From Chloroflexota bacterium (lineage in GTDB: Bacteria > Chloroflexota > Limnocylindria > Limnocylindrales > CSP1-4): a stretch of DNA of 53,201 nt. The stretch spans positions 43,099 through 96,299 of the forward strand of contig JBBDRY010000096.1 in the NCBI GenBank assembly GCA_040905225.1, given 5' to 3'. This document shows positions 722 through 40,362 of the stretch, piece after piece. Within the stretch, counting starts at the first letter, position 1; each line of letters opens with the position of its first letter. A model generated the notes under the pieces. It searched no databases. It had not been told where the DNA came from and was given only the letters and a program-made list of their open reading frames with translations. The position numbers and the translations under genes were made by a program.

Positions 722-2311
722 ATGGACTCCTGCGACCTGCTGATCGAGGGCGGCACAATCGTCGACGGCAGCGGCGCCCTGGGCCGAATCGGCTCCATAG
801 CCGTGCGTGGCGATCGCATGACAGTCCATCCACCCGAGTGGGACCGCCCGGGGCAGGTGGGACGACTGATCGACGCCAGTGGCAAGGTAGTTGCCCCGGG
901 CTTCATCGATCTCCATTCGCACGCCGGCCTGATGATCCTGGCCGACCCGCTCCACGAGCCCAAGGTCCGCCAGGGCGTCACCACCGAGGTAATCGGGGTC
1001 GACGGGCTGTCGTACGCACCGCTGCCATCGCAGACAGACCTCGACGCCCTGATCGAGATGAATGCCGGACTGGATGGGGCGCCGGACATCGCCGCCAACT
1101 GGCAAACGGTCGAAAGCTACCTGGACAGGTTCGACGGTCGGGTGAGCGTCAACATCGGCCTGCTCATCGGGAACAGCGCGCTTCGGATCAGCCGGCTTGG
1201 CTGGGATGACGTGCCTGCAGACGAGTCCGCCATTGCGGACATGAGGGCGATGCTGCGCGACGCGATGGCCGCGGGCGCCCTGGGCCTCTCGTCGGGGCTC
1301 GACTATCCGCCCGGTGCCTTCGCCACGACCGACGAGCTCGCCGCCCTGACCGCCGAGGCCGCGCGGAATGGCGGCTTCTATCACACCCACGTGCGGTATC
1401 CGCTCGGAGATCGCTACCTGGATCCGTTCCGTGAGGCGATCGAGATCGGCCGGCGCGGCGGCGGCCCCGTGCACATCACCCACTTCTATCACCGCCAGAC
1501 CCATCCGGGCGGGCCCGAGCCACTGCTCGCGCTGGTTGACGACGCACGCGCGGGAGGCCTCGACGTGACGTTCGACACCTACCCCTACGAATGGGCCTCG
1601 ACCCGGCTTCTCATCCAGTTGCCGCAGTGGATCCAGGCCGGCGGCCCAGGACCGCTCAAGGAGCGGCTGGCCGACCAGGGCGCGCGCGATCGTGTCCGGG
1701 CCGAGTTACGCGAACGGGGCGCGGCGTACACATCTCCCGCCGGCTGGGGGGACGTTCGTCTCGGTTATTTCGCGACACCGGGCAACCTGCGCTGGGAGGG
1801 GCTGACGCTCGCCGACGTGATGGCCGAGCGGGGGGTCGACGCGGTCGACGCGATATGCGACCTGCTCCTCGAGGAAGACCTGCGTATCAACCAGGTCACG
1901 TCCGGTCCATGGACGGAGACGATGCACCACTTCGTCGTCCATCCGGTAGGGATGTTCGGGACCGACTCGACGTTCATCGGCGCCAAGCCCTCCCCGCGCA
2001 CGTACGGGTCGTATCCGCGCGTGCTGGGCGAGTTCGTGCGGGAGCGCGCGCTCCTCGGGCTCGAGGAGGCAGTGCGAAAGATGACATCGGCGCCCGCGGC
2101 GCGGCTCGGACTGCGCGACCGCGGCCTGCTGCGCGACGGCTACCTGGCAGACGTCGTGGTTTTCGACCCCGAGACAGTCAGATCAAACGCCACGTACGAC
2201 GAGCCGCGCCGCTACCCGGATGGGATCGAACACGTCGTGGTCAACGGTGTTCTCGTCGTGGATCACGGCGAGCACACGGGCGCGTTGCCGGGGCGGGCAA
2301 TCCGCCGCTAG
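722..2311 (+). CDS. N-acyl-D-amino-acid deacylase (D-aminoacylase) family amidohydrolase
   Basis: 529-aa ORF. The N-terminus DLLIEGGTIVDGSG...GKVVAPGFIDLHSHAG carries the HxH metal site of the amidohydrolase superfamily. Length and the C-terminal DVVVFDP...V segment are typical of D-aminoacylases. Confidence 0.8.
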   Translation: MDSCDLLIEGGTIVDGSGALGRIGSIAVRGDRMTVHPPEWDRPGQVGRLIDASGKVVAPGFIDLHSHAGLMILADPLHEPKVRQGVTTEVIGVDGLSYAPLPSQTDLDALIEMNAGLDGAPDIAANWQTVESYLDRFDGRVSVNIGLLIGNSALRISRLGWDDVPADESAIADMRAMLRDAMAAGALGLSSGLDYPPGAFATTDELAALTAEAARNGGFYHTHVRYPLGDRYLDPFREAIEIGRRGGGPVHITHFYHRQTHPGGPEPLLALVDDARAGGLDVTFDTYPYEWASTRLLIQLPQWIQAGGPGPLKERLADQGARDRVRAELRERGAAYTSPAGWGDVRLGYFATPGNLRWEGLTLADVMAERGVDAVDAICDLLLEEDLRINQVTSGPWTETMHHFVVHPVGMFGTDSTFIGAKPSPRTYGSYPRVLGEFVRERALLGLEEAVRKMTSAPAARLGLRDRGLLRDGYLADVVVFDPETVRSNATYDEPRRYPDGIEHVVVNGVLVVDHGEHTGALPGRAIRR

Positions 2312-28700: not shown

Positions 28701-28905
28701 CACCGGAAGTCGGCGCGTAGCAGCGCGCGCGGCAGATCGTCACGCCGGCTGATCGGCCGAGACGCTCCGACACCTCGTCGATCAGGCGCGAAATACCGAT
28801 GCCGAGCGGCCCGGAAAGCGCCACGCGGGTTGGCTCCCCCTCTGCGGCGCGCTGGAGGGCCGAGCCCAGCACGTCCAACTCGCGTTCACGACCAATGAAC
28901 GCCAT
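25765..28905 (-). CDS. large ATP-binding LuxR-family (LAL/MalT-like) transcriptional regulator
   Basis: The ATG at 28905 gives MAFIGRERELDVLG... An N-terminal P-loop-like region, a long TPR/helical middle, and a C-terminal LuxR HTH (LSPRENSVLLVLTEGRTNREIAERLFISERTVAVHVRRILSKLGV). Confidence 0.85.
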   Translation of the reverse strand: MAFIGRERELDVLGSALQRAAEGEPTRVALSGPLGIGISRLIDEVSERLGRSAGVTICRARCYAPTSGVPYGALRDALATTLVGVPTDRLAPLLGSGVHDLVRFIPELADRLEGLDVEARSPRLDAPDQRGARVRESLFAVFARLAAQNLLVLVVEDLEHSDPATRGFVSAMLRVRRRLPMMLIVGYHTDELPRGHPALGLIQEINDSPAVERLTLEPLSRDETSALVESLQGERPTLGFVAAVTEGARGNPLLAGQLVAAEAELAGLRLSDPFDEILHARVSQLDAAAVRGLKVLAAARRPISEASMGLLRLPDGHLPRNAGGAAVASGLALSTDAGLSLVHDLCAEAIEASTLPAERRGLHAALADLLADEPAEAAWHWRRAGRPAKAREAHIAAAESAEELEPGETAFSHYSAALELGESDEEADVDLLTAAASAAAAAVAFRRAAAYVEQALQRVAGGRVERLLTRTVPEKEAAARLVARSTAAELSEQLGHYRRGGGDPVGAQEAFERAVELAPESAPALRAQALASLAQGLMLDGRFADSARVAEDARLTARAAGPEGLAALAHASDTLAVDLGWMGDIDTGLALLDEAMATARDVGRLDEVMRCYANRTTLLDLDSRREEALAVVKEGIAEASRSGLGLTYGAFLRGNAADILFQLGRWSESEAECRAAMEFPPAGVAWFSPTLYLGLVLIESRADEEARRLVGQTLLQLDTVPAGQWSALVLRTAVSDALWRGELGDARNSAEQGWQRVQETADPAQIAYAASTVLEACAASSERGRLKRDWSEVADAGELAGRVMAVAEGALNDWDLPVTVGARREAELHLAMARAHADRVRGKAKPERWAELAEAWLKVPIPYQAAKARWWQAQAALPVRAKRAEARKALTEAWRICSNLPAAPLQRALRDLSVRGRITLPDTNVVAIPIETEAKELVAVGPGRPKPVDFGVRVGGGSGGLSPAEARFGLSPRENSVLLVLTEGRTNREIAERLFISERTVAVHVRRILSKLGVGGRTEAAGMAIRLGLVPEDPGAIAASPRSARA

Positions 28906-29002
28906 GCCCGAAGGATACGGTGGTCTGGTGGATACTTGTGAGGTGCGGGAAGGTACCGAGCGGCCGCGAACGCAGGCTGCGGTGCGCGCGGACAACGGGC
29001 AC

Positions 29003-29890
29003 GTGCATCCCGACAACTCGCTGAACGAGCTCTCCGGCGAGGAGTGGCTCTACTTCACCAAGTCGCTCTGGACGACGGCGTATCCGTCCGAGCTGGGCCA
29101 CGCGGCGCGCAAAGCGCACGGCGCGAACAAGCCGCCGCGGTTGATGGCCAAGCTGATCGAGTTCTTCACCAAGCCAGGCGAGCTGGTCCTGGACCCGTTC
29201 GCAGGCGTCGGCGGCACGCTGCTTGGCGCATCCATCTGTCGGTCGCCCCGGCGCGCGCTGGGGTTCGAGATCGAGCCGCGTTGGGCGGAGGTCTACGACG
29301 GCGTCGTGAGCTCCGCGCTGGCGGCGCAGAACGGCGACGCGTCGCTTCTGGCGGACCTGGGCCAGTCCGACCCCGGCGGCGGGCGGCGTTTCGATCCTTC
29401 AGGAGCGCGACTCGTCATCGGTGACGCGATCCGGCTGCTGGCTGAGCTAGAACCGGCGTCGGTCGACTTCGTTGCGACCGATCCGCCCTACAACCCCCAG
29501 CTGCGACTGACGATGGCCGGCGGGAAGCTGGCCGAGCGGTTCGCCAACCGACGAACCGACTACGCCATGGTGACCGCGGATCCGGCCGATCTGGCGAACA
29601 GCGCGACCTACGAGGAGTATCTCGACCGCATGCAGGGCGTGCTTGCGGAACTGCACCGCGTCCTACGGCCGAAGCGCTATGCCACGGTCATCGTCCGCGA
29701 CGCATACCAGAACGGCCACTACCGCTTCACGGGCGCGGACCTGGCCGCGCGTGCCGAACGAGTCGGGTTCGTGACCAAAGGTGACCTGGTCTGGTATCAG
29801 GCCGGTTCGCGGCTACGGCCGTACGGCTACCCGCGCGGTTTCGTCCCGAACATCGTCCATCAGCACATCTTGGTCTTACGCGCGGAGTAG
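29003..29890 (+). CDS. SAM-dependent DPPY-motif (N4/N6-type) methyltransferase; start uncertain (28895-29003)
   Basis: HGANKPPRLMAKLIEFFTKPGELVLDPFAGVGGT (SAM-binding motif I region) is followed about 90 aa later by FVATDPPYN (motif IV). No adjacent restriction endonuclease is recognisable. Confidence 0.7.
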   Translation: MHPDNSLNELSGEEWLYFTKSLWTTAYPSELGHAARKAHGANKPPRLMAKLIEFFTKPGELVLDPFAGVGGTLLGASICRSPRRALGFEIEPRWAEVYDGVVSSALAAQNGDASLLADLGQSDPGGGRRFDPSGARLVIGDAIRLLAELEPASVDFVATDPPYNPQLRLTMAGGKLAERFANRRTDYAMVTADPADLANSATYEEYLDRMQGVLAELHRVLRPKRYATVIVRDAYQNGHYRFTGADLAARAERVGFVTKGDLVWYQAGSRLRPYGYPRGFVPNIVHQHILVLRAE

Positions 29891-31850: not shown

Positions 31851-32228
31851 ATGCCAGACAACGCATGGCCGATAGCCGCCATCGCGGGAGCCCTAACCGT
31901 TGGCCTTCTCGCGATCCTTGGGTACCTAGTTACCGTGCTTGGGCTTGCGCGGCTGCGGAACATCGATGAAGCGGTTAGCAATGTCGTGCGCCAGCTACGC
32001 CTCCGGCAGGACGCTACCATCGCGGACGTTCGAGCTGAGACCGAACGGGCGAAAGCCGAGCTGTCCACTTTCGTCGACAAGGAACTGAGTACGTTGACTG
32101 CCCGGCGCGATGAACTTGAGCAGCTGTCCGCGAGTCTCGCTTGGGCGAAAGAGGCCACACGAGGCGGCGCGGATGTCCAGATACCAGCGACAGTTCACGA
32201 AGCGTATTTGCTCGCGAAGGCAGCCTAA
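31851..32228 (+). CDS. hypothetical membrane-anchored coiled-coil protein
   Basis: 125 aa with a GAGAGGG Shine-Dalgarno site 5 nt upstream of the ATG. N-terminal TM (WPIAAIAGALTVGLLAILGYLVTVLGL) followed by a heptad-like charged region. Confidence 0.5.
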   Translation: MPDNAWPIAAIAGALTVGLLAILGYLVTVLGLARLRNIDEAVSNVVRQLRLRQDATIADVRAETERAKAELSTFVDKELSTLTARRDELEQLSASLAWAKEATRGGADVQIPATVHEAYLLAKAA

Positions 32229-33256
32229 GGGTGCGGGTCCTGCGGATGAACCGTCTCGTCCGGACTCGGGCCTACTGCGCTCGCGAAGTCTTTAGACGCC
32301 GTCAGAACTCGCAATTCCGGGAGGGACATCTCGATGCCGAGTGACTCATTGACGGCGAAACCGTCCGCAACAGACCACTTATACGACAGGTCATGAGCGG
32401 GCATCAGCCGGTAGATGTACCCGAACTTCGTTCCCTGTTTGGCATACAACCCATCCAGTTTCTCATTGTCGAGGAAAAGGACGACCGGCTCGCCGATCGC
32501 AAGGTCGACACGCGGCTCACTTGCGATCACATACGTTCCAAGAGGGAGGGGGTGATCGTCCGCGTCGGCATTCGATGTGTCCGCGATCGTGACGACGACT
32601 TGACCACCCCTGATGGTGAATTCGATGACGTCGCCCGGCGACACGGAGTCGGTTACGTCGGCCAGTACATCGTCGACCTCGAATAGGACATCGCGAAGGA
32701 GCTCACTGGCTACGTCGCGCCCTGCCCTGCTTCCGACAAGAGACGAGTCCCAGTACGACCCGTCGAGAGAGTTGAAGTACGGACGACCGAACGCCAACAC
32801 GCGACCCTGCACCGCGAGCCGTGCCATTGAAGCGAGATGCTCGGGAGTACGAATTCCAAAGTACGAGTATTCATCGATAAATCGGGCGTTGATCGTGGAG
32901 TCCACGGCGGGCTGGTCTGATAGCGTGTCGAGTGAACCGTCATACGCTGACGTGTCGGTCGTGGCATATTGTCCTGTGACTACAGGAGGGCGACGCGCGA
33001 TCCAGTTCGCGATCATCGCCTGGTCGCCAGGCCGGGGCGTACTACTCGGGCCCTGCGGAGCCGTCGTACTGGTTGCGCCGACACTAGGTGTTGCTGGGGG
33101 CCGAGCGATGGACCGCAGCGGGGTAGCGGTGGCGGTGGCGTCAGTAGTGCTCGGTGGCGCACTCGGCACATTGGGGGACCGAGGTGGTGCGGCGGTACAT
33201 GCGACCGCCACCACAAGTATCACTGCGGCCAAGCCGGTGCGAATCACTAGAAGCAT
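32225..33256 (-). CDS. hypothetical lipoprotein
   Basis: 343 aa. Signal peptide plus lipobox (AVILVVAVACTAAP), a Pro/Thr/Ser linker, then a globular region with no motif I recognise. The start overlaps the upstream gene's stop by 10 nt. Confidence 0.6.
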   Translation of the reverse strand: MLLVIRTGLAAVILVVAVACTAAPPRSPNVPSAPPSTTDATATATPLRSIARPPATPSVGATSTTAPQGPSSTPRPGDQAMIANWIARRPPVVTGQYATTDTSAYDGSLDTLSDQPAVDSTINARFIDEYSYFGIRTPEHLASMARLAVQGRVLAFGRPYFNSLDGSYWDSSLVGSRAGRDVASELLRDVLFEVDDVLADVTDSVSPGDVIEFTIRGGQVVVTIADTSNADADDHPLPLGTYVIASEPRVDLAIGEPVVLFLDNEKLDGLYAKQGTKFGYIYRLMPAHDLSYKWSVADGFAVNESLGIEMSLPELRVLTASKDFASAVGPSPDETVHPQDPHP

Positions 33257-34185
33257 TGGTAACCGTGGCTAACCTGGTACCCGTAGCACGCATGCTCGTT
33301 TTCGTGTTGGAGCGGGTCGCGCTTCGTGATTTCTCCGGGCACGACGGTGCCGCTCATCGTGTGCTGATGCGTATGAGTGTCGTGGCCCGTGGGAGGGTCG
33401 TGGTGGGAAACGTTCTGTGCGTGGCCGAGTTCTTCCTGCCAAACACTCCACTCGTCGATCTGAAGGCCGCCCGGTGTTCCCGTTCCATTGTACCAGCTGC
33501 AAGCTTGAAAGCCTGGTTGGTCTCCGCAATCGATCTCTTCAACATCGTGCCGGACCCATAGCTCGGCCACGCGAGGGATATGATTGCTCGCGTCCTCCTG
33601 GAGAATGCGACCCATCCCAAGAACTCCCCCGGAGGCGAACTTCATGTTCGGGTGCGTGATTCCATCGAGGTCTTTCGTGGCGTTCCACGGACTGTTCGGG
33701 TTTGTCTCGCCCTCCCATTGCGCCACGGCCCGTTTGTACGAGTCGCGGTCGGCCAGATGATGGCCGTCGTCGAGCTCGTTTCCGAAGTGCCACAACATTG
33801 TGTTCGCGTTCCAATGCGCGGCGCACGTCGGGTCACTGCCATACGCCACCTGCGTCAGGCACTGAAGGAAGCTGTGGCCGGCGGCCACGGGTAGAAGCCC
33901 GGGTAGAGCGGCGATCGCAAGTTGCATCGCAGCGGCGAGGGCGAAAGCAGCTCTCCAGTGAGGCACGGGCAGCCGACCCTGACGGTGATGTATCGCGAAC
34001 AGAGTACGCCCGATCAAGGCAATGTCAAGCCGCGACCGGCTCTGTGAACGGCCAGCGCATCTGGCACGGGGGCGAGAGGATTTGAGCCGCCAAGTCCCAC
34101 GCCGCGAATAGTGGTGCCGAAATTGCTGTTCGACGCCCTCTGGAACACCGCGTGATCCGACCGAGGCGAGGGGCCAGCGAACCAC
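33247..34185 (-). CDS. hypothetical secreted protein with a degenerate metzincin-like motif (start uncertain)
   Basis: Hydrophobic leader AAFALAAAMQLAIAALPGLLPVAAG. EELGHAQNVSHHD resembles HExxHxxGxxH with H1->E and G->N. His-rich tail HDTHTHQH and several Cys residues. Confidence 0.5.
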   Translation of the reverse strand: MVRWPLASVGSRGVPEGVEQQFRHHYSRRGTWRLKSSRPRARCAGRSQSRSRLDIALIGRTLFAIHHRQGRLPVPHWRAAFALAAAMQLAIAALPGLLPVAAGHSFLQCLTQVAYGSDPTCAAHWNANTMLWHFGNELDDGHHLADRDSYKRAVAQWEGETNPNSPWNATKDLDGITHPNMKFASGGVLGMGRILQEDASNHIPRVAELWVRHDVEEIDCGDQPGFQACSWYNGTGTPGGLQIDEWSVWQEELGHAQNVSHHDPPTGHDTHTHQHTMSGTVVPGEITKRDPLQHENEHACYGYQVSHGYQCF

Positions 34186-34250
34186 GGGCCTGCTTTATAG
34201 CCGGGCGGGACTAGGCCGGTCGTCTCAAAGAACCTGGGCGCGAGCCGCGG

Positions 34251-34408
34251 TCAGCCGGGGCGACGCCTCGGAGTGGGCAGATCGACGTCTGCTTTTCGGA
34301 TCGTCACGATCGTCGGGACACGCTGCGGTTCAATTGGGGGCCCGCGCCGCTCGGGAGGGACGGTCGGGGGGCGCTCCGGCGGGGCCGGAGCCTTCGGCTC
34401 ACTCGTCA
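34251..34408 (-). CDS. proline-rich micro-ORF (paralogue 2)
   Basis: The GTG at 34408 gives VTSEPKAPAPPERPPTVPPERRGPPIEPQRVPTIVTIRKADVDLPTPRRRPG. It is clearly paralogous to the upstream micro-ORF. It could alternatively be the 3' half of one frameshifted gene. Confidence 0.35.
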
Positions 34409-34578
34409 CGCGAGCGCCTCTCGATCTCCGCCTCTTGTGCTGTAAAGATGGTCGGCGCACGCTCGGGCTCCGTGGGCGGTTGCGGGTGCTCGATGCGTTC
34501 TCTGGGAATCGTCGGCGGCCGGTCCGGTTCGGGCGGCGGTTCCGGCGATCGAGGCTGGTCGATTTCCCTATCAGTCAT
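34399..34578 (-). CDS. proline-rich micro-ORF (paralogue 1)
   Basis: The ATG at 34578 shares ATGA with the stop of the TM-protein gene. Product: MTDREIDQPRSPEPPPEPDRPPTIPRERIEHPQPPTEPERAPTIFTAQEAEIERRSRDE. Confidence 0.4.
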   Translation of the reverse strand: MTDREIDQPRSPEPPPEPDRPPTIPRERIEHPQPPTEPERAPTIFTAQEAEIERRSRDE

Positions 34579-35165
34579 GCCAGTAGCTCCGCAATCCACG
34601 CGATGATTGTCAGTCCAATCAGGATAACCGCCCACGTGAGGCCGTCGAACATGCCATTCAGTTGCTTCCTGTTCTCAATCTGCGCCTTCTCCATCTCGAC
34701 GGCGAGCCCGTAGTGCGTTTGCGCGATCGACGCTGTCGGCTCGCTTCTCACGTACGAGCCGACCACCTCCTTCGCATTCGGCAGAAACCGCCACCCGGAG
34801 CGCGGCCGGATGATGTTCAGTGTCGTCACGACCGTAAGCCCGAACAGGACCACGGCGATCCACCCAGGGATGCCCAGGGCCGCCTTCTGGCCACTTGGCA
34901 GCGCCGCGCCGCCGAGGAAGCTTGTCACGATCGCGGCCGCGGCGAGCAGCGTCGACGCTCGCTCGCGCAGACCGTCGAGCGTTTCCTGCTGCTGGTCGAG
35001 CGCTTTCAGAGCAAGGTCGTATGCGAGCCGGTAGTGCTCGCCGAACGGCGTGTAGGCGTCCTCGAACGGATCGCGTCCGGTGCGATCCGCAGCGCTCAAC
35101 GCGTCGAACTCTGGCGTTCCGATCTCCGGCAGGTCGCTCGATGTGATCCCAGGGTCGCTGTCCAT
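34575..35165 (-). CDS. 3-TM membrane protein, candidate membrane effector
   Basis: The ATG at 35165 lies 4 nt after the upstream stop and gives a 196-aa product. Soluble acidic N-terminus, then ASTLLAAAAIVTSFLGG, IPGWIAVVLFGLTVVTTLNII and the C-terminal LTWAVILIGLTIIAWIAELL. Confidence 0.6.
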   Translation of the reverse strand: MDSDPGITSSDLPEIGTPEFDALSAADRTGRDPFEDAYTPFGEHYRLAYDLALKALDQQQETLDGLRERASTLLAAAAIVTSFLGGAALPSGQKAALGIPGWIAVVLFGLTVVTTLNIIRPRSGWRFLPNAKEVVGSYVRSEPTASIAQTHYGLAVEMEKAQIENRKQLNGMFDGLTWAVILIGLTIIAWIAELLA

Positions 35166-35169
35166 GGTG

Positions 35170-35991
35170 CTATGGCCGGGGCTTGGCGCGGGCCGTTGGT
35201 ATCGCCATATCAAGGCGACGATGTAGGTACGAGACCGTCGTGAGAAGATCCATTGCGTCCTGTTCGGTGATGGTGCTGTAGACGCGCGGTAGGTGGGCCG
35301 GGACATTCCGAAAGACCTTGAAGATCCCGCGCATGATCGCCGCGACGCCGTCATGGTCATCCCAATCGCTCGGGTCCTTCAAATCGTTCACGAGAAGGTA
35401 CGGGCCGGATCCGCCCCGCTCGAACGCGGTTTGCACGAGCGTTACCGCGTCAGACGTCAAGCCAGTGATCGAGCGGAGCTTGTCCGCGACCGACTTGGCC
35501 GCTTCAAACACCGCGTGGAAGTAATCCTTTGCCACCAACTCGGCTCGACAGAACCGAATCACGTCCGGGTGGACCCGGCGCCGGTCCAGCTCATCGCGCA
35601 TCCTGTCTGCTCGCCGCTGAGCCTCGCTGACGGTCGACGCTTTGGGCGCCTGGAACATCCTCCCGTCAAGCATCAGCTTGTAGCCCGCCAGCGCCGACGG
35701 AACATTGAGGGCTTGGACCAGCCGCTCGTGCGCCTCGGCATCACCGCTTGAGTTCGACGGTGAGGCCGCTTCCTTAATGAACGTCACGACACGCGTTCCC
35801 GAACCGGACCCATCCTGGGCCGTGGCCAACGCTGCGTAGATTCGTCTCCACTTCGTCGACAGGTCGATGGGATCGTTCAGTCCCGTCGTCGCCAGCATGC
35901 GACTGATCACCTGTCCGGTGAAGGCCGCTCCGATGACCCGGCTAATCCTTTCGAGCGTTCCGGGCGCGAACGGATCAAGTTTCGGCGCCAT
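35170..35991 (-). CDS. TIGR02391 (hypoth_ymh)-like protein with HEPN-type R-x4-H motif
   Basis: The ATG at 35991 gives MAPKLDPF... The C-terminal part reads HPDVIRFCRAELVAKDYFHAVFEAAKSVADKLR...LVQTAF...GIFKVFRNVPAHL...EQDAMDLLTTVSYLHRRLD, matching my recollection of the TIGR02391 pattern. RNVPAH is an Rx4H motif. Confidence 0.6.
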   Translation of the reverse strand: MAPKLDPFAPGTLERISRVIGAAFTGQVISRMLATTGLNDPIDLSTKWRRIYAALATAQDGSGSGTRVVTFIKEAASPSNSSGDAEAHERLVQALNVPSALAGYKLMLDGRMFQAPKASTVSEAQRRADRMRDELDRRRVHPDVIRFCRAELVAKDYFHAVFEAAKSVADKLRSITGLTSDAVTLVQTAFERGGSGPYLLVNDLKDPSDWDDHDGVAAIMRGIFKVFRNVPAHLPRVYSTITEQDAMDLLTTVSYLHRRLDMAIPTARAKPRP

Positions 35992-36036
35992 TGGCGTGCG
36001 GATGCCTCCACGCGGGCAGAATGGACAATCTCCACA

Positions 36037-36462
36037 ATGACAGAATATCGACCAGGGTGGGACCACTTCCTCGAGGCCCAGGCGCCGCCATGGCTACGGG
36101 AGTTCGTGCGCAATGAGACTTCAGCCGTAGACGCCGATCTAGCGCTCCCGATGGGCGGAAAAGGGGTATGCCTTCCGACGGTGATTGCCTGGAGGAGACA
36201 CTTCGAAGCTGCCGGGATTCGCGTTGAGCAACAAGGCCGCGGTCTCGACAATCGCGCCGGGCGGTGGACGGGCGGTTATCTCGCCGTCGATGGGGAAGAG
36301 CCGAGAGACCATCACTGGCTCGCAGTGTGGCCGGAACTCACCCTGTTCGATCCGACCTGGGGCGACCAGGACTTCGGTCAGGAGGAACTGCCGAATCTGG
36401 ACCGCTATTTGGTCGGCGGCATGGCATTTCCGGACTGGCGGGCCGCGATCTTCGCTGGGTGA
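36037..36462 (+). CDS. minimal transglutaminase-like (papain-fold) cysteine protease domain protein
   Basis: 141 aa. GKGVCLPTVIAWRRHFEAAGI (Cys), DHHWLAVW (His) and LFDPTWG (Asp) occur in the order and spacing of the transglutaminase-core triad. Divergent from the HEPN-like gene. Confidence 0.45.
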   Translation: MTEYRPGWDHFLEAQAPPWLREFVRNETSAVDADLALPMGGKGVCLPTVIAWRRHFEAAGIRVEQQGRGLDNRAGRWTGGYLAVDGEEPRDHHWLAVWPELTLFDPTWGDQDFGQEELPNLDRYLVGGMAFPDWRAAIFAG

Positions 36463-36690
36463 GCGGCCCGTCTCTGCGCGACAGCATCCACCAAAGGCGG
36501 AGGTCTCGGCCAATCCACGCCATTCGACGATGTCACAGCTCCGGGCATCCGCCCGCTGCTGGCCCTCTCGCTCGCGCCGGCGTCGGCGCTAGCAATGCCG
36601 ATCAGGGGTAGTCGAGTGTGGCCACGGACTTGCGGTTGGCGTAGGCTCACGTCCGGGAGCGGCTGACGCAACACGGAGGCCAGAATCGCC

Positions 36691-37234
36691 ATGGGCCTAG
36701 AACTTGTGAACCTTGACGCACGAACGCGTGAATTGGCGCTGTCGGAAGTGGACTCGGATGTCCAACAGGGCCGCCTCTACATGAGTACACGAGTACACGC
36801 TTCACACCACGTGGATTGGAACGGTATCCAGACCTGCTTCGGGATGCTGTTCGCGGAGGTGACGACGATAGTCTGGCCCGGGGGCTCAGGACCGAGGATG
36901 CTTCTCGGAATGGGAAGAGGGCCGGCGGGGAGCCAAGAGGTTCCCGAAGCGCGTCCCAGTAACCGCGGCCGGGACCTTTGCAGAGGGCGAATTCAACAGA
37001 TTCTACTTGAGGGGCCTTTGCCTCAGGGCGATTGCCGCTGGAGTACCGGCGCTCGAAGTCTATCGGGCAAAACAGGTGGCAGAGCCCCATCCGGAGTCCG
37101 AAGCGAAGGTCGGTAGCATGGTGAACGCAGCCTCGATGCTCAATGATCTGCGAGCGAACATCGGGGTGGACACAGCCCTGGGCCTCCCGCCAGGTCCCAA
37201 TTCGGGCATGAGCGCTCGGCTGCCGGGCACGTAG
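36691..37234 (+). pseudogene. disrupted gene of unknown function (at least 2 frameshifts, one caused by an 8-bp tandem duplication)
   Basis: ATG at 36691 with an ACGGAGG Shine-Dalgarno site. GAGTACAC is duplicated in tandem at 36783-36790 and 36791-36798. Protein-like sequence continues in frame 0 (FTPRGLERYPDLLRDAVRGGDDDSLARGL) and then in a third frame (FAEGEFNRFYLRGLCLRAIAAGVPALEVYRAK...) to the stop at 37234. Confidence 0.6.
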
Positions 37235-37530
37235 CCTCGGCCAATGCCCGGAATTGCCCTGTGCCGCATCGGCCGTGGCCGAGCGGCGGGTAGCTCCGAG
37301 ACTCGGAACGAGTCAGCGGATGGCCAACTCAGGCGGACTGTCGAACCGGTCGATGACGTTCACGGTCCCGCTGGCCACGATGAAGCATCGCAGTAGCGGC
37401 GGTTCCGGTGTCGTGGGAATGTCCGTTCGGAGCCGTCCACGACACGCCGCCGCGTCGGTCTCTACACCCGCAGCCGAACGAGAACGCGTGGCTGCTCGGC
37501 CTCGTGGCCCACACGGAAGACGTGAGAATG

Positions 37531-37561
37531 TCGGGGCGAGGGGATTTGAACCTCCGATTCC
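37531..37561 (-). other. tRNA 3'-half remnant (T-arm plus acceptor strand, tRNA-Pro-like)
   Basis: The minus strand reads GGAATCGGAGGTTCAAATCCCCTCGCCCCGA. This contains a GGTTCAAATCC T-loop box and a CGCCCCGA acceptor/discriminator. No matching 5' half, D-arm or anticodon arm could be folded. Confidence 0.4.
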
Positions 37562-37959
37562 CACACCTAGCGTCGTCGTGCCAGCGTTGGTGATGGCCAC
37601 GCTTCGCCGCGTCGTGTAAGTGCTCCCTCATCGCCTCCGCCGGCTTGTGGGCACAACCGGAGCCTACGTGCCTTACGAGTCGCCGGCCCTTGAGCGGTCA
37701 GGTGTGCGGCCGTTTGATCGTGCGCGAACGAAGGGGCAGTCGGGGATTTGGCGGTCGGATACACGGCGTGGCGGCACGACTTGATTATGGGTCCGTGCGC
37801 AGTTGGTAGCATCCAGTCGCGGCATCGTCGCGGTCTTGCTCCATGGCGTCCGCCCGAACAGCGAAGCCAGTCTTCTCGTTGCCGCCGCCCAAGGGCAACT
37901 CGGCCCACGAGGGCCGCCAAGGCCTTGCATCCCGCGCTAATGTATGTTACATAGTCGGC

Positions 37960-38565
37960 ATGGATCTGCCGGACATCGGCCGCTATCGACGGCGCTTCAT
38001 CGTGGAGTTCGGCCCGGAAGACTCCGGTCTCGTGGACCGCGTGGGCGAGGTCTACAAGACCAAGCGAGCCGCCATCATCGCGGGGCTGCGCCTACTCGAC
38101 AGCGGCGAGACCGAGCAGATGCGGGCGCGGCTGGCCGCGCTTGAGGCGGAGCTGTCGTCTGCCCGCGAGGCCCTGGAGGAAAAGGCAAAGGCCGTCCGCG
38201 CCGCGAAGCCGGCCGCGGCGCTGGCCAAGGTCGATCTGCGAGAAAAGAGCGAGGAACTCGCGGCGGCCCGTGCCGAGGTGCGACGGGCCAAGACCGCCAA
38301 CGCGGAGGTCCGCCGCGCCATGGTCGAGCTGACTGCAGAACGGAATCGACTCCGCGATCAGGTCCCGCACCATGCCTACTGTGGCCACTGCGACAAGCTC
38401 GCGCCCGATTCTGAATGGGCCGAGGAGGCCGCCGAACGCGGCTATTACGTCTATCACAGGGGCGACGGCTTTCGGCCCAAGCGCAGCATCGTGGGCGGGC
38501 CGGCCACCGTCCTCTTCTGGCGCGCGAAGTCGCTCTTGGCACCGCGCGACGGCTCGTCAGCATGA
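37960..38565 (+). CDS. ribbon-helix-helix-like / coiled-coil / Cys-His cluster protein (integrase operon gene 1)
   Basis: 201 aa. RRRFIVEFGPEDSGLVDRVGEVYKTKRAAIIAGLRLL has a strand-helix-helix pattern, followed by a long Ala/Glu/Arg coiled coil and HHAYCGHCDK. An AT-rich palindrome ATGTA-TGT-TACAT lies 6-18 nt upstream. Confidence 0.6.
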   Translation: MDLPDIGRYRRRFIVEFGPEDSGLVDRVGEVYKTKRAAIIAGLRLLDSGETEQMRARLAALEAELSSAREALEEKAKAVRAAKPAAALAKVDLREKSEELAAARAEVRRAKTANAEVRRAMVELTAERNRLRDQVPHHAYCGHCDKLAPDSEWAEEAAERGYYVYHRGDGFRPKRSIVGGPATVLFWRAKSLLAPRDGSSA

Positions 38566-38801
38566 GCGCCATGACCGACGCCAACCCGTTGTCCGCAGGG
38601 CCGCTAGATCTCTTCACGATCCTGGTCTTGGTCATTCTCGGCTTCCTGCTTCTCTCGATGCCGAAGCCAGCCGCGGTCCGGGCCACGATCGCTCTCGGAA
38701 CGCCCCGCCTCGTCGCCCTCGGTCCGGGCGAGGCAGTTTCCGCGAGCCGGCTTCTCGGCAGCGTGGCAGCAGACGCGATGGCCGAGATTGAGCGCTGGTA
38801 A
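38562..38801 (+). CDS. small single-TM protein (integrase operon gene 2)
   Basis: 79 aa. The ATG overlaps the upstream stop (ATGA) and its own stop overlaps the integrase ATG (TAATG). TM helix LDLFTILVLVILGFLLL. Confidence 0.45.
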   Translation: MSAMTDANPLSAGPLDLFTILVLVILGFLLLSMPKPAAVRATIALGTPRLVALGPGEAVSASRLLGSVAADAMAEIERW

Positions 38802-40330
38802 TGACAGCAACGGTCCGCGTCGCGCTCTATACCCGGATCAGTACCGACGAGACCAACCAGCCGTACTCGCTCGGCGCCCAGCGCGATCGTCTCGAAGCGT
38901 TCGTGGCATCTCAGCCGGATTGGGCGATTATCGAGGTCTACACCGACCAGGCCTCTGGCAAGAACCTCGATCGGCCGGCGCTTACGGCGGCTCGGGCGGC
39001 AGCTGCGGCCGGCCAGTTCGAACTTCTGCTCGTGTATCGAATTGATCGTCTCAGCCGCAACCTTGGAGAGTTGATCAGTCTCGGCGATGAGTTGGCGCGC
39101 CACGGTGTGGCCTTCAGAAGCGCGACCGAGTCATTCGATACCGGCAACCCGGCAGGCCGGATGCTCGTCCAGCTCCTTGGCTCGTTTGCCGAGTTCGAGC
39201 GGGCCACCATGCTCGATCGAATCAGGGCGGGCATGGAGCGCAAGGCCTCCCGCGGCGAGTGGACTGGCGGAGTACCGCCGTTCGGATACCAGAAGGCCCG
39301 CGGCGAGTCGCTCTTGCGGCCTGACCCGGATGCCGCTCCGATCGTGCGCTCGATCTTCGCCCGATACATTCAGACGCGCGACGGCGCGCGTTCGATCGCT
39401 GTCTGGCTCGACGCTCAGGGCGTGCGAACCCGGTCCGGCGTCCCGTGGTCGACCTCGGGCGTGCTTGCCCTGCTGCGCAACCGGGCCTACATCGGCGAGG
39501 TGAGCTTTCGCGGGGTGTGGCGTCCCAGCGCTCACGAGCCGATCGTTGAGCGCGAGATATTCGACGCAGCCCAGTCGATCCTGGATCAGCGTGCCGGATC
39601 GCCGGGCCTGCGCCGGGCCAACCCCACCGACTACCTATTGAGCACCTTGCCGCTCGTGTGCGACCGCTGCGGCCATCCCATCGTCGGCGCGAGCGCTCGG
39701 GGCCGCGGCGGCAAGATCTACGCTTACTACACCTGTTCTACCCGCGCGCGCAGAGGACCTAGCGGCTGCGATCAGGAACGCCTACCCAAAGACGAACTGG
39801 AGGCGGCAGTCCTCTCGCAGATGACTCAGGTCTACGCCGACACCAGCCTCGTCGCCGCGGCGCTGGAGGAAGCTCAAGCGGAGACTCGGGCCAGAGACGC
39901 CGAACGTAGCGCGGAGCACGATCGACTCCAATCCCACGCGGCCGAGCTGCGACGCAAGGTCGATCGCTACGTCGCGGGCTTCGAAGCTGGGGAACTGCGC
40001 GCGGCCCTATTCCAGAGCCGCGTCACTGCGCTGCAGACCGAGCTTGCCGCCGTGGAAGCAGCGCTGGCGCAGCAACCTGGCGGCGGCCCAGCCGAGGGCA
40101 CGGTCGACGTTGGCCTCGTGTCCTGGGGCCTCAGCAAGGCGCTGGGAGAAGTTCTAGCGAGCACCTCTCCACGTCTGACCAAGGAACTCCTCAGAGTCCT
40201 GATCCAGGAGATCCGGGTGGTGTCGCCAATGGACATCCGGCCCACCTACCGGGTGCCGGCGTCCGAGGTTCGCATACTGGAGGGTCTGGTAGGGGAGCCT
40301 GGATTCGAACCAGGGACCGGGCGGATATAA
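38801..40330 (+). CDS. large serine recombinase (integrase)
   Basis: 509 aa. Resolvase-type catalytic domain (VALYTRISTDE with the catalytic Ser context, LLVYRIDRLSRN). Recombinase domain (GGVPPFGY, LRNRAYIGE), Cys-rich zinc ribbon (CDRCGHP...YYTCSTR...GCD) and a coiled coil. The last 44 nt are antisense to the tRNA. Confidence 0.9.
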   Translation: MTATVRVALYTRISTDETNQPYSLGAQRDRLEAFVASQPDWAIIEVYTDQASGKNLDRPALTAARAAAAAGQFELLLVYRIDRLSRNLGELISLGDELARHGVAFRSATESFDTGNPAGRMLVQLLGSFAEFERATMLDRIRAGMERKASRGEWTGGVPPFGYQKARGESLLRPDPDAAPIVRSIFARYIQTRDGARSIAVWLDAQGVRTRSGVPWSTSGVLALLRNRAYIGEVSFRGVWRPSAHEPIVEREIFDAAQSILDQRAGSPGLRRANPTDYLLSTLPLVCDRCGHPIVGASARGRGGKIYAYYTCSTRARRGPSGCDQERLPKDELEAAVLSQMTQVYADTSLVAAALEEAQAETRARDAERSAEHDRLQSHAAELRRKVDRYVAGFEAGELRAALFQSRVTALQTELAAVEAALAQQPGGGPAEGTVDVGLVSWGLSKALGEVLASTSPRLTKELLRVLIQEIRVVSPMDIRPTYRVPASEVRILEGLVGEPGFEPGTGRI

Positions 40331-40362
40331 GCCGCCTGCTCTAACCACTGAGCTACTCCCCC
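40287..40362 (-). tRNA. tRNA-Ile, anticodon UAU, CCA encoded
   Basis: Hand-folded cloverleaf, 76 nt: GGGGGAG TA GCTC AGTGGTTA GAGC A GGCGG CTTATAT CCGCC CGGTC CCTGG TTCGAAT CCAGG CTCCCCT A CCA. There is one G1-U72 wobble and all other stem pairs are Watson-Crick. Confidence 0.85.

Follow-up and report, generated by a model that had tools for sequence, protein, structure and literature searches.

PD-lambda-3 is an abortive-infection (Abi) system against lambda (PMC9519451; PMC13190303). It was recovered by functional selection from Escherichia coli ECOR28, where it was listed under "Nuclease, HEPN" with three proteins (PMC9519451), and it serves as an abortive-infection control in a later paper (PMC13190303). 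In the HHpred table of its authors, component A is a small restriction-endonuclease-like protein, component B combines AbiJ_NTD3 with Hypoth_Ymh, and component C is a beta-propeller (PMC9519451). Ymh is a HEPN family with a conserved Rx4-6H motif, the members of which occur solo as well as near restriction-modification genes (PMC3710099). Here, we analyse a block of four minus-strand open reading frames (ORFs) at positions 34251 to 35991 of a 53,201-nucleotide stretch of a Chloroflexota contig (JBBDRY010000096.1; hereafter "the window"): gene 1, which by profile comparison encodes a homologue of component B, gene 2, and micro-ORFs 3 and 4. The block had been put forward from its sequence as a candidate undescribed toxin or Abi module (the original prediction). 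It is most likely a pair of neighbouring units and not an undescribed system: the kind of protein encoded by gene 1 is already catalogued, as its full-length match to the PADLOC PD-Lambda-3_B model indicates, and the gene 2 cassette is uncharacterised. With moderate confidence, we regard gene 1 and the gene 2/micro-ORF cassette as two independent cargo units that were joined by lineage-specific recombination.

Layout of the four-gene block

The genes, domains, and junction discussed below are as follows.

35991 (ATG) to 35170 (TAG), minus strand: gene 1, 273 amino acids (aa)
35581..35991, minus strand: gene 1 N-terminal domain (approximately residues 1-137), alpha+beta, presumed sensor/regulatory
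35203..35580, minus strand: gene 1 C-terminal Ymh/HEPN domain (residues 138-263), Pfam Hypoth_Ymh and PADLOC Aga_HEPN
35293..35310, minus strand: RNVPAH, the Rx4H motif (residues 228-233; R228...H233), read from the sequence
35065..35185, minus strand: lineage-specific junction, from the final 5 codons of gene 1 through the 4-nt spacer to codon ~33 of gene 2
35165 (ATG) to 34575 (TGA), minus strand: gene 2, 196 aa
34578 (ATG) to 34399 (TGA), minus strand: micro-ORF 3, 59 aa, acidic, 14 prolines
34409 (GTG) to 34251 (TGA), minus strand: micro-ORF 4, 52 aa, basic, 15 prolines

The four ORFs had been described as packed with 4-nt gaps or overlaps throughout. This holds for the 4-nt spacer between genes 1 and 2 (CACC) and for the ATGA common to the gene 2 stop and the micro-ORF 3 start, but micro-ORFs 3 and 4 overlap by 11 nt, not 4.

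Gene 1 and the PD-lambda-3 B family

The C-terminal part of gene 1 had been assigned to the TIGR02391/hypoth_ymh family, and both corresponding models match above their curated cut-offs: Pfam PF09509 (Hypoth_Ymh) at residues 138-260 (E = 1.1e-34; 119.3 bits against a cut-off of 25) and TIGR02391 (E = 1.5e-28; 99.4 bits against 39.45). Gene 1 also matches phrog_6297 (2e-46) and the PADLOC model PD-Lambda-3_B (PDLC03987; 8.5e-57), the latter over residues 5-265 and profile positions 4-265 of 270, and 529 homologues were found. Judged by these profiles, gene 1 is a TIGR02391/Ymh HEPN-family protein and a full-length homologue of PD-lambda-3 B. The N-terminal domain lies inside the full-length PD-Lambda-3_B match and has no direct Pfam match; AlphaFold2 (AF2) predicts helices and a beta-hairpin at residues 104-114, and the equivalent region of E. 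coli PD-lambda-3B is given as AbiJ_NTD3 (97.8%) in the HHpred table of the authors (PMC9519451). The C-terminal domain is further matched by PADLOC Aga_HEPN (residues 141-263; 1.2e-13) and contains the RNVPAH stretch, which the original prediction had read as the catalytic R-x4-H motif of HEPN proteins. An alignment of 58 homologues, which spans many phyla, plasmids, and phages, bears this reading out: R228, A232, and H233 do not vary, and at least 90% of the sequences keep N229.

The AF2 model of gene 1 is confident, with a mean predicted local distance difference test (pLDDT) score of 90.8, and its C-terminal domain is all-alpha, with pLDDT mostly >90. A Foldseek search of the PDB placed HEPN proteins among the top matches at E 0.9-6, none of them significant (4nqf, the best, at E 0.94; LsoA, 5hy3, at E 1.9; Cas13d; Csm6), and a profile search of PDB sequences with gene 1 returned spurious calmodulin matches only, with no solved relative. 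It is sequence profiles and the motif, not structure search, that assign gene 1 to the HEPN proteins. A literature search on TIGR02391 found no papers.

The E. coli PD-lambda-3 cassette was reached through plasmid matches; a Shewanella homologue, used as a DNA query for the E. coli PD-lambda-3 locus, found nothing. On the E. coli plasmid pX14-3-NDM (locus L025, 3482-6240), the recovered cassette consists of component A (159 aa; PD-Lambda-3_A, 2.3e-100), component B (PD-Lambda-3_B, 1.2e-179), and a third gene of 477 aa with an N-terminal Mrr_cat match (2.6e-11) ahead of a propeller-like region. There is no PADLOC model for this third gene, and the two-gene definition of PD-lambda-3 may omit a nuclease component. 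The alignment of gene 1 with component B spans its full length (37% identity to the pX14-3-NDM copy), and the two proteins share the two-domain build and the invariant R...H motif. The window differs from PD-lambda-3 in that component A and the Mrr_cat/beta-propeller gene are absent: the PD-Lambda-3_A model matched none of the nine ORFs neighbouring gene 1, tblastn with E. coli A and the third gene found no match in the whole 53-kb window, and the genes 3' of gene 1 are unrelated to any PD-lambda-3 part. The same single-sequence tblastn (E<=1e-3) found A and C partners neither at 80 reference-genome B loci from many phyla nor at the other B loci fetched from metagenomes, phages, and plasmids, so that pX14-3-NDM is the only one of the ~94 B-family loci examined in which they were found. 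Standing alone is the usual state of the PD-lambda-3 B family, and gene 1, on the sequence evidence, is a typical stand-alone member of this known defence-associated family and not a complete PD-lambda-3.

The best-fitting category for gene 1 is that of the solo Ymh/TIGR02391 proteins (phrog_6297; Lactococcus phage TP712 orf5; "protein Ymh" of Streptococcus Javan prophages; the Ymh family of PMC3710099), which belong to the same full-length family, stand alone on mobile elements, and are often found near defence genes. Those of prophages and plasmids differ from gene 1 in that none carries the gene 2 cassette. Lactococcus phage TP712 and Streptococcus prophages carry solo B-family genes in their lysogeny modules, and a solo copy in Shewanella adjoins an insertion sequence element. 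Other solo copies adjoin Shedu and SIR2 (pMOL28), an AbiD/PD-T4-5-like gene (Mycolicibacterium), a PIN-helix-turn-helix (HTH) pair (Rhodococcus), an RmrA-like HTH-peptidase, and AbiEi/AbiEii (L063). The Shedu neighbour on pMOL28 was considered as a PD-lambda-3 A and rejected, being a bona fide SduA. To our knowledge, no solo Ymh/TIGR02391 protein has been characterised experimentally.

Two further observations concern homologues of gene 1. At L002, a 79%-identical homologue is adjoined, in divergent orientation, by a 184-aa protein (856-1410, minus strand) with an N-terminal transmembrane (TM) helix and an R-x4-H motif of its own (LRNLSAHGR); this protein has no Pfam or PADLOC match and may be a second, membrane-anchored HEPN-like protein. 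On three independent contigs (L014-L016, ~460-1420), a homologue of 78% identity is broken into two frames that overlap, which suggests a real frameshifted pseudogene of the lineage.

Synteny and the junction between genes 1 and 2

Approximately 94 gene 1 loci and 16 gene 2 loci, the window included, were compared. The two families are adjacent in the window only (0 of ~93 other gene 1 loci; 0 of 15 other gene 2 loci), and the closest relatives of each gene occur without the other, contrary to the proposal that the four genes form one module. Gene 2 is missing beside the gene 1 relatives at L001 (88% identity), L002 (79%), L003-5 (65%), and L013-16, and no Ymh gene accompanies the gene 2 relatives at L011, L006, L012, L017, L020, L022, L023, L024, and L108-L114. 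The synteny sought in other genomes is likewise absent, with none of the 80 genome loci of gene 1 relatives having an adjacent gene 2 relative. The only other locus with both families is L063 (1446-6627), from an actinomycete metagenome-assembled genome, where a distant gene 2 relative is situated 1.7 kb upstream of a gene 1 homologue in a defence island; within 5 kb, this locus holds the gene 2 relative, a 129-aa protein with a C-terminal TM helix, the gene 1 homologue, and an AbiEi/AbiEii pair. More generally, by a crude ORF call, a multi-TM protein directly 3' of a gene 1 relative was seen in 2 of the 78 loci with enough flank, and one of these is a 14-TM transporter.

The limits of homology locate the junction. 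L001 shares the DNA from 36440 to 35185 with the window, including a 141-aa gene divergent from gene 1, and this similarity ends 15 nt before the gene 1 stop; unrelated genes follow the gene 1 homologue in L001. By blastn, homology to L001 (the gene 1 block) ends at 35185 and homology to L011 (the gene 2 block) begins at 35065, and in L011 the gene 2 relative (83% identity) is preceded by 94 nt of unrelated sequence. The 120-bp junction is unique to the lineage of the window, and the stretch of it that belongs to gene 2 is not conserved and is predicted to be disordered. Because the junction is unique and the start of gene 2 is not conserved, the tight spacing looks as though it came from a single recombination event rather than from a conserved design.

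Gene 2 and the proline-rich micro-ORFs

Gene 2 has an acidic N-terminus and three hydrophobic segments by hydropathy (residues 70-91, 94-121, and 171-196), in agreement with the soluble N-terminus and three TM helices originally described. AF2 (pLDDT 82) places helices at residues 40-88, 99-119, and 147-195, and predicts residues 1-40 to be disordered (pLDDT 55-64); the first ~33 codons are lineage-specific. A word-indexed search with gene 2 returned three relatives only, and an exhaustive profile search returned 2349 cluster representatives at E<=1e-3, with 1033 at E<=1e-10. A three-sequence gene 2 alignment used as a pattern query of reference genomes gave no match, and the genomic context of the relatives was taken from metagenome contigs. 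Members of the family are mostly 155-170 aa, match profile positions ~30-183, and conserve Q59, R69, F83, F108, P121, W125, and N165. This profile evidence places gene 2 in a large, so far unnamed family of ~160-aa membrane proteins, found mainly in high-GC bacteria. The ratio of nonsynonymous to synonymous substitution rates (dN/dS) for gene 2 is 0.18 against L011 and 0.08 in a second comparison.

No Pfam, NCBIfam, or PADLOC model reaches threshold for gene 2, and no Pfam or PADLOC model does so for 50 of its relatives. Sub-threshold matches to SLATT_3 (E 0.012-0.098) occur in 4 of 9 family members and cover the N-terminal helix and hairpin; gene 2 itself matches SLATT_3 at E 0.098 (13.3 bits against a cut-off of 26.3) and PycTM at E 1.8. 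DUF4231 is weakly matched in 4 of the 9 members, with PycTM at E ~1. Among the 50 relatives, PADLOC PycTM models match up to 10 (best 0.005) and the reverse transcriptase (RT)-associated SLATT model (RTasSLATT) matches one (0.0011), all below threshold, and there are weak matches to CBASS 2TM/4TM effector models; in 8 of 25 relatives, the precomputed Pfam assignment is PF18967 (PycTM). With the SLATT/PycTM effectors (SLATT_3, PF18184; DUF4231; PycTM, PF18967), gene 2 shares a cytoplasmic N-terminal helix that leads into a TM hairpin. It differs from them in its third, C-terminal hydrophobic helix and its proline-rich tail or micro-ORF, and in that no nucleotide cyclase, SMODS, SLOG, or RT partner is present among the ORFs neighbouring gene 2. 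Remote homology is possible, and the similarity is best taken as a lead, not as membership. A literature search on SLATT/PycTM brought up papers on slatted floors only.

Relatives of gene 2 are found in several mobile contexts, including an integrase and capsid (L023), an excisionase-like gene (L020), a Rep-like gene (L006), transposases (L110), a Streptomyces plasmid (L024), and the defence island of L063. At L111 (128-2005), 11 nt separate a gene 2 relative from a charged 53-aa micro-ORF downstream, behind which lies a gene for a 417-aa protein with a weak caspase match (Peptidase_C14, E 0.0065), an order that hints at a protease effector linked to the gene 2 membrane family.

Micro-ORFs 3 and 4 are paralogous beyond shared composition, as had been proposed: their Smith-Waterman score is 110, against 50 +/- 7.5 in shuffles, none of 5000 of which reached 110, and they have in common the pattern PPE.RPPT[IV]P.ER ... 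PP.EP.R.PTI.T. Analysis of reading frames by GC content at third codon positions (GC3) was indecisive in this proline-rich region and was replaced by comparative dN/dS, which is 0.085-0.20 for micro-ORF 3 (L011, L006) and 0.24 for micro-ORF 4 (L006), similar to gene 2. Third positions account for 26-30 of the 40-53 differences. In L011 (80% DNA identity), gene 2 and micro-ORF 3 are both present and overlap at ATGA as they do in the window, and L006 (73% DNA identity) keeps both micro-ORFs, the 11-nt overlap, and the stop position of micro-ORF 4, with ATG in place of the GTG of the window and one 6-nt in-frame indel. Conserved GGAG-type ribosome-binding sites lie 7-9 nt 5' of both micro-ORF starts; for micro-ORF 3, GGAG 8-9 nt upstream is kept in all three loci (window, L011, L006). 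These features indicate that both micro-ORFs are translated, or had been up to the very recent past. A non-coding origin, or a single frameshifted gene, was considered and rejected, since the ORFs, overlap, and stops are kept in L006.

The micro-ORF family proper occurs only with the closest gene 2 relatives (window, L011, L006). More distantly, a different proline-rich ORF overlaps the stop of the gene 2 relative in L012, and small charged ORFs are located just 3' of the gene 2 relative in L023 and L111. Four gene 2 relatives (P0178, P0210, P0244, P0260) carry a proline-rich tail as an in-frame extension beyond the third helix, and that of P0244 starts MTMDRSTPEVEPEE, which closely resembles micro-ORF 3. 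Gene 2 thus travels with a hydrophilic proline-rich element, and the fusions link the micro-ORFs in function to gene 2 rather than to gene 1. In L006 (1314-2230), gene 2 is degraded, with its 5' half replaced and a 1-nt insertion through which its frame reads into micro-ORF 3, and both micro-ORFs are intact and conserved despite this; they may work without an intact gene 2, or the 1-nt insertion may be an assembly error.

Proposed function and alternative explanations

If genes 1 and 2 are independent units, both would be cargo of a small recombinase-bearing island, joined by lineage-specific recombination and probably read from one transcript. Unit 1 (gene 1) would be a latent metal-independent RNase, as in the HEPN superfamily, in which two copies, by analogy with other HEPN proteins, would associate so that their R-N-x-x-A-H motifs form a single active site. 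In the absence of a phage cue, the enzyme would be held inactive by its N-terminal domain, and upon such a cue RNA cleavage would stop the growth of the infected cell; such an abortive-infection role for gene 1 is plausible. Unit 2 would consist of the three-helix membrane protein and a proline-rich tail split off as micro-ORFs 3 and 4, with a membrane-acting function in conflict or in the mobile element tentatively suggested; gene 2 might be a SLATT/PycTM-like pore former, and the micro-proteins its detachable regulatory tail. The RNase activity and phage trigger of gene 1, and membrane disruption by gene 2, are what we infer from the families concerned. No dependence of unit 2 on unit 1 was found among the loci compared.

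Several points weigh against this interpretation. Single-sequence tblastn could miss very divergent A and C partners; the E. coli PD-lambda-3 clone that was assayed contained A, B, and C together; and we know of no measurement of RNase activity or of a phage phenotype for any solo B-family member. The HEPN fold of gene 1 is not supported by a significant Foldseek match. For gene 2, all SLATT/PycTM similarities fall below curated thresholds, Foldseek against the PDB and BFVD returned generic helical matches only, and relatives in L109, L112, and L113 are located among metabolic or housekeeping genes. Finally, the single strand, the 4-nt gap, and the overlaps leave no room for internal promoters, so that the four genes are probably co-expressed; co-transcription is likely from the spacing, and a functional link between the units may exist.

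The metabolic neighbours in those three loci are also an argument for gene 2 and its proline-rich partners being an envelope or housekeeping module of high-GC bacteria, with gene 1 the sole defence gene and the adjacency accidental. The family is very large, no defence profile is significant for gene 2, and envelope proteins of actinobacteria commonly have proline-rich tails. We nevertheless consider this explanation unlikely, given the many gene 2 relatives in mobile contexts (L023, L020, L006, L110, L024, L063), the repeated weak SLATT/PycTM matches, and the absence of a signal peptide from the separate micro-ORFs.

Quite unlikely, in our assessment, is one integrated abortive-infection system of all four genes, in which the HEPN protein would sense or cleave RNA, the membrane protein would act as pore or anchor, and the micro-proteins would serve as regulators or antitoxins. 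The operon-like packing, the Abi family of gene 1, the weak matches of gene 2 relatives to Pycsar, CBASS, and DRT membrane effectors, and the 1.7-kb proximity of both families in the L063 defence island are all compatible with such a system. It is opposed by the lack of adjacency in any of the ~93 gene 1 and 15 gene 2 other loci, by closest relatives of either gene that lack the other, by the rarity of a multi-TM gene directly downstream of gene 1 relatives (2 of 78), and by the lineage-specific junction, in which the first 33 codons of gene 2, the source of the 4-nt spacing, are non-conserved and disordered. Lambda RexA/RexB is an Abi pair of sensor and membrane effector, in which a cytoplasmic component acts with a small multi-pass membrane protein, and this general pairing logic underlay the original prediction; no sequence relationship to RexA/RexB was found, although no search was aimed at it, and the pairing of genes 1 and 2 is not conserved. 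A more speculative version, to which we give just as little credence, is a composite two-effector Abi operon: gene 2 and the micro-proteins would stand for an undescribed, widespread family (more than 2000 clusters) of SLATT/PycTM-like membrane effectors, gated by their detachable tail or micro-protein and, in this lineage, newly wired behind a PD-lambda-3B-type HEPN protein acting as sensor and nuclease.

A HEPN-style toxin-antitoxin pair that stabilises the island, with gene 1 as toxin and gene 2 or a micro-protein as antitoxin, is very improbable: HEPN domains are frequent as toxins of such pairs, and the small overlapping ORFs and mobile-island setting would suit one, but neither a minimal nucleotidyltransferase (the HEPN-MNT antitoxin) nor another known antitoxin family is present among the ORFs neighbouring gene 1, most gene 1 relatives are solo without a conserved small neighbour, and in other loci the micro-ORFs accompany gene 2, not gene 1.

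Island setting and neighbouring genes

Two independent cargo units, as favoured here, would have been carried by an island whose features, together with the gene divergent from gene 1, are the following.

36037..36462, plus strand: divergent gene of 141 aa, no family match, context of gene 1
38801..40330, plus strand: large serine recombinase of the island (Resolvase, 2.3e-38; Recombinase, 1e-18; Zn_ribbon_recom, 1.2e-11)
40290-40362, minus strand: tRNA, called by ARAGORN as Ile with anticodon TAT (UAU)

The lower-GC, integrase-bearing island described originally was recovered, with 59.5-63% GC at ~32-37 kb against 65-70% in the flanks of the window, and its integrase is the large serine recombinase. 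The final ~40 nt of the recombinase ORF overlap the 3' end of the tRNA, an arrangement that would fit insertion of the island into this gene; Ile tRNA with a UAU anticodon is an isoacceptor uncommon in bacteria. A search for direct (att-type) repeats with the tRNA end and the island flanks found none, as expected of a serine recombinase. Scans of 33900-36400 for promoters and terminators found neither, such scans being uninformative for a high-GC organism.

The divergent 141-aa gene had been read as a minimal transglutaminase-like protease, an assignment that finds no backing in Pfam, NCBIfam, PADLOC, or PHROG, none of which gave a match. It has 75% aa identity to the equivalent divergent ORF of L001 (~1513-1902, minus strand), with which it shares a retained Cys (GVC), HHW, and FD, the residues that had been read as a transglutaminase-like triad, and it is the sole neighbour that accompanies gene 1 in a second locus (L001).

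Directly 3' of micro-ORF 4 (32225-34185, minus strand) are two overlapping ORFs of 312 aa and 343 aa, neither of which matched a family in any library scanned; the 343-aa product combines a lipoprotein-like signal (...VAVAC) with a linker rich in Pro, Thr, and Ser. Between the 141-aa gene and a coiled-coil ORF (37843-38565), ~1.3 kb (36500-37800) contains overlapping ORFs only, with no clear coding GC3 signal and no Rfam match. Just beyond the low-GC stretch, an N6/N4 DNA methylase ORF (28799-29890, plus strand) has no restriction partner among the ORFs scanned.

Implications

PD-lambda-3 B usually occurs without A and C across many phyla, prophages, plasmids, and defence islands. The functional core may be B by itself; otherwise, most of the B family escapes the current two-gene definitions. 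Gene 2 represents a very large membrane family for which no Pfam model passes threshold, in which a proline-rich tail or micro-ORF recurs, and which bears a faint likeness to pore-forming immune effectors. The locus is also a caution that operon-tight spacing in an island can arise from a single recombination junction, and not from a conserved system.

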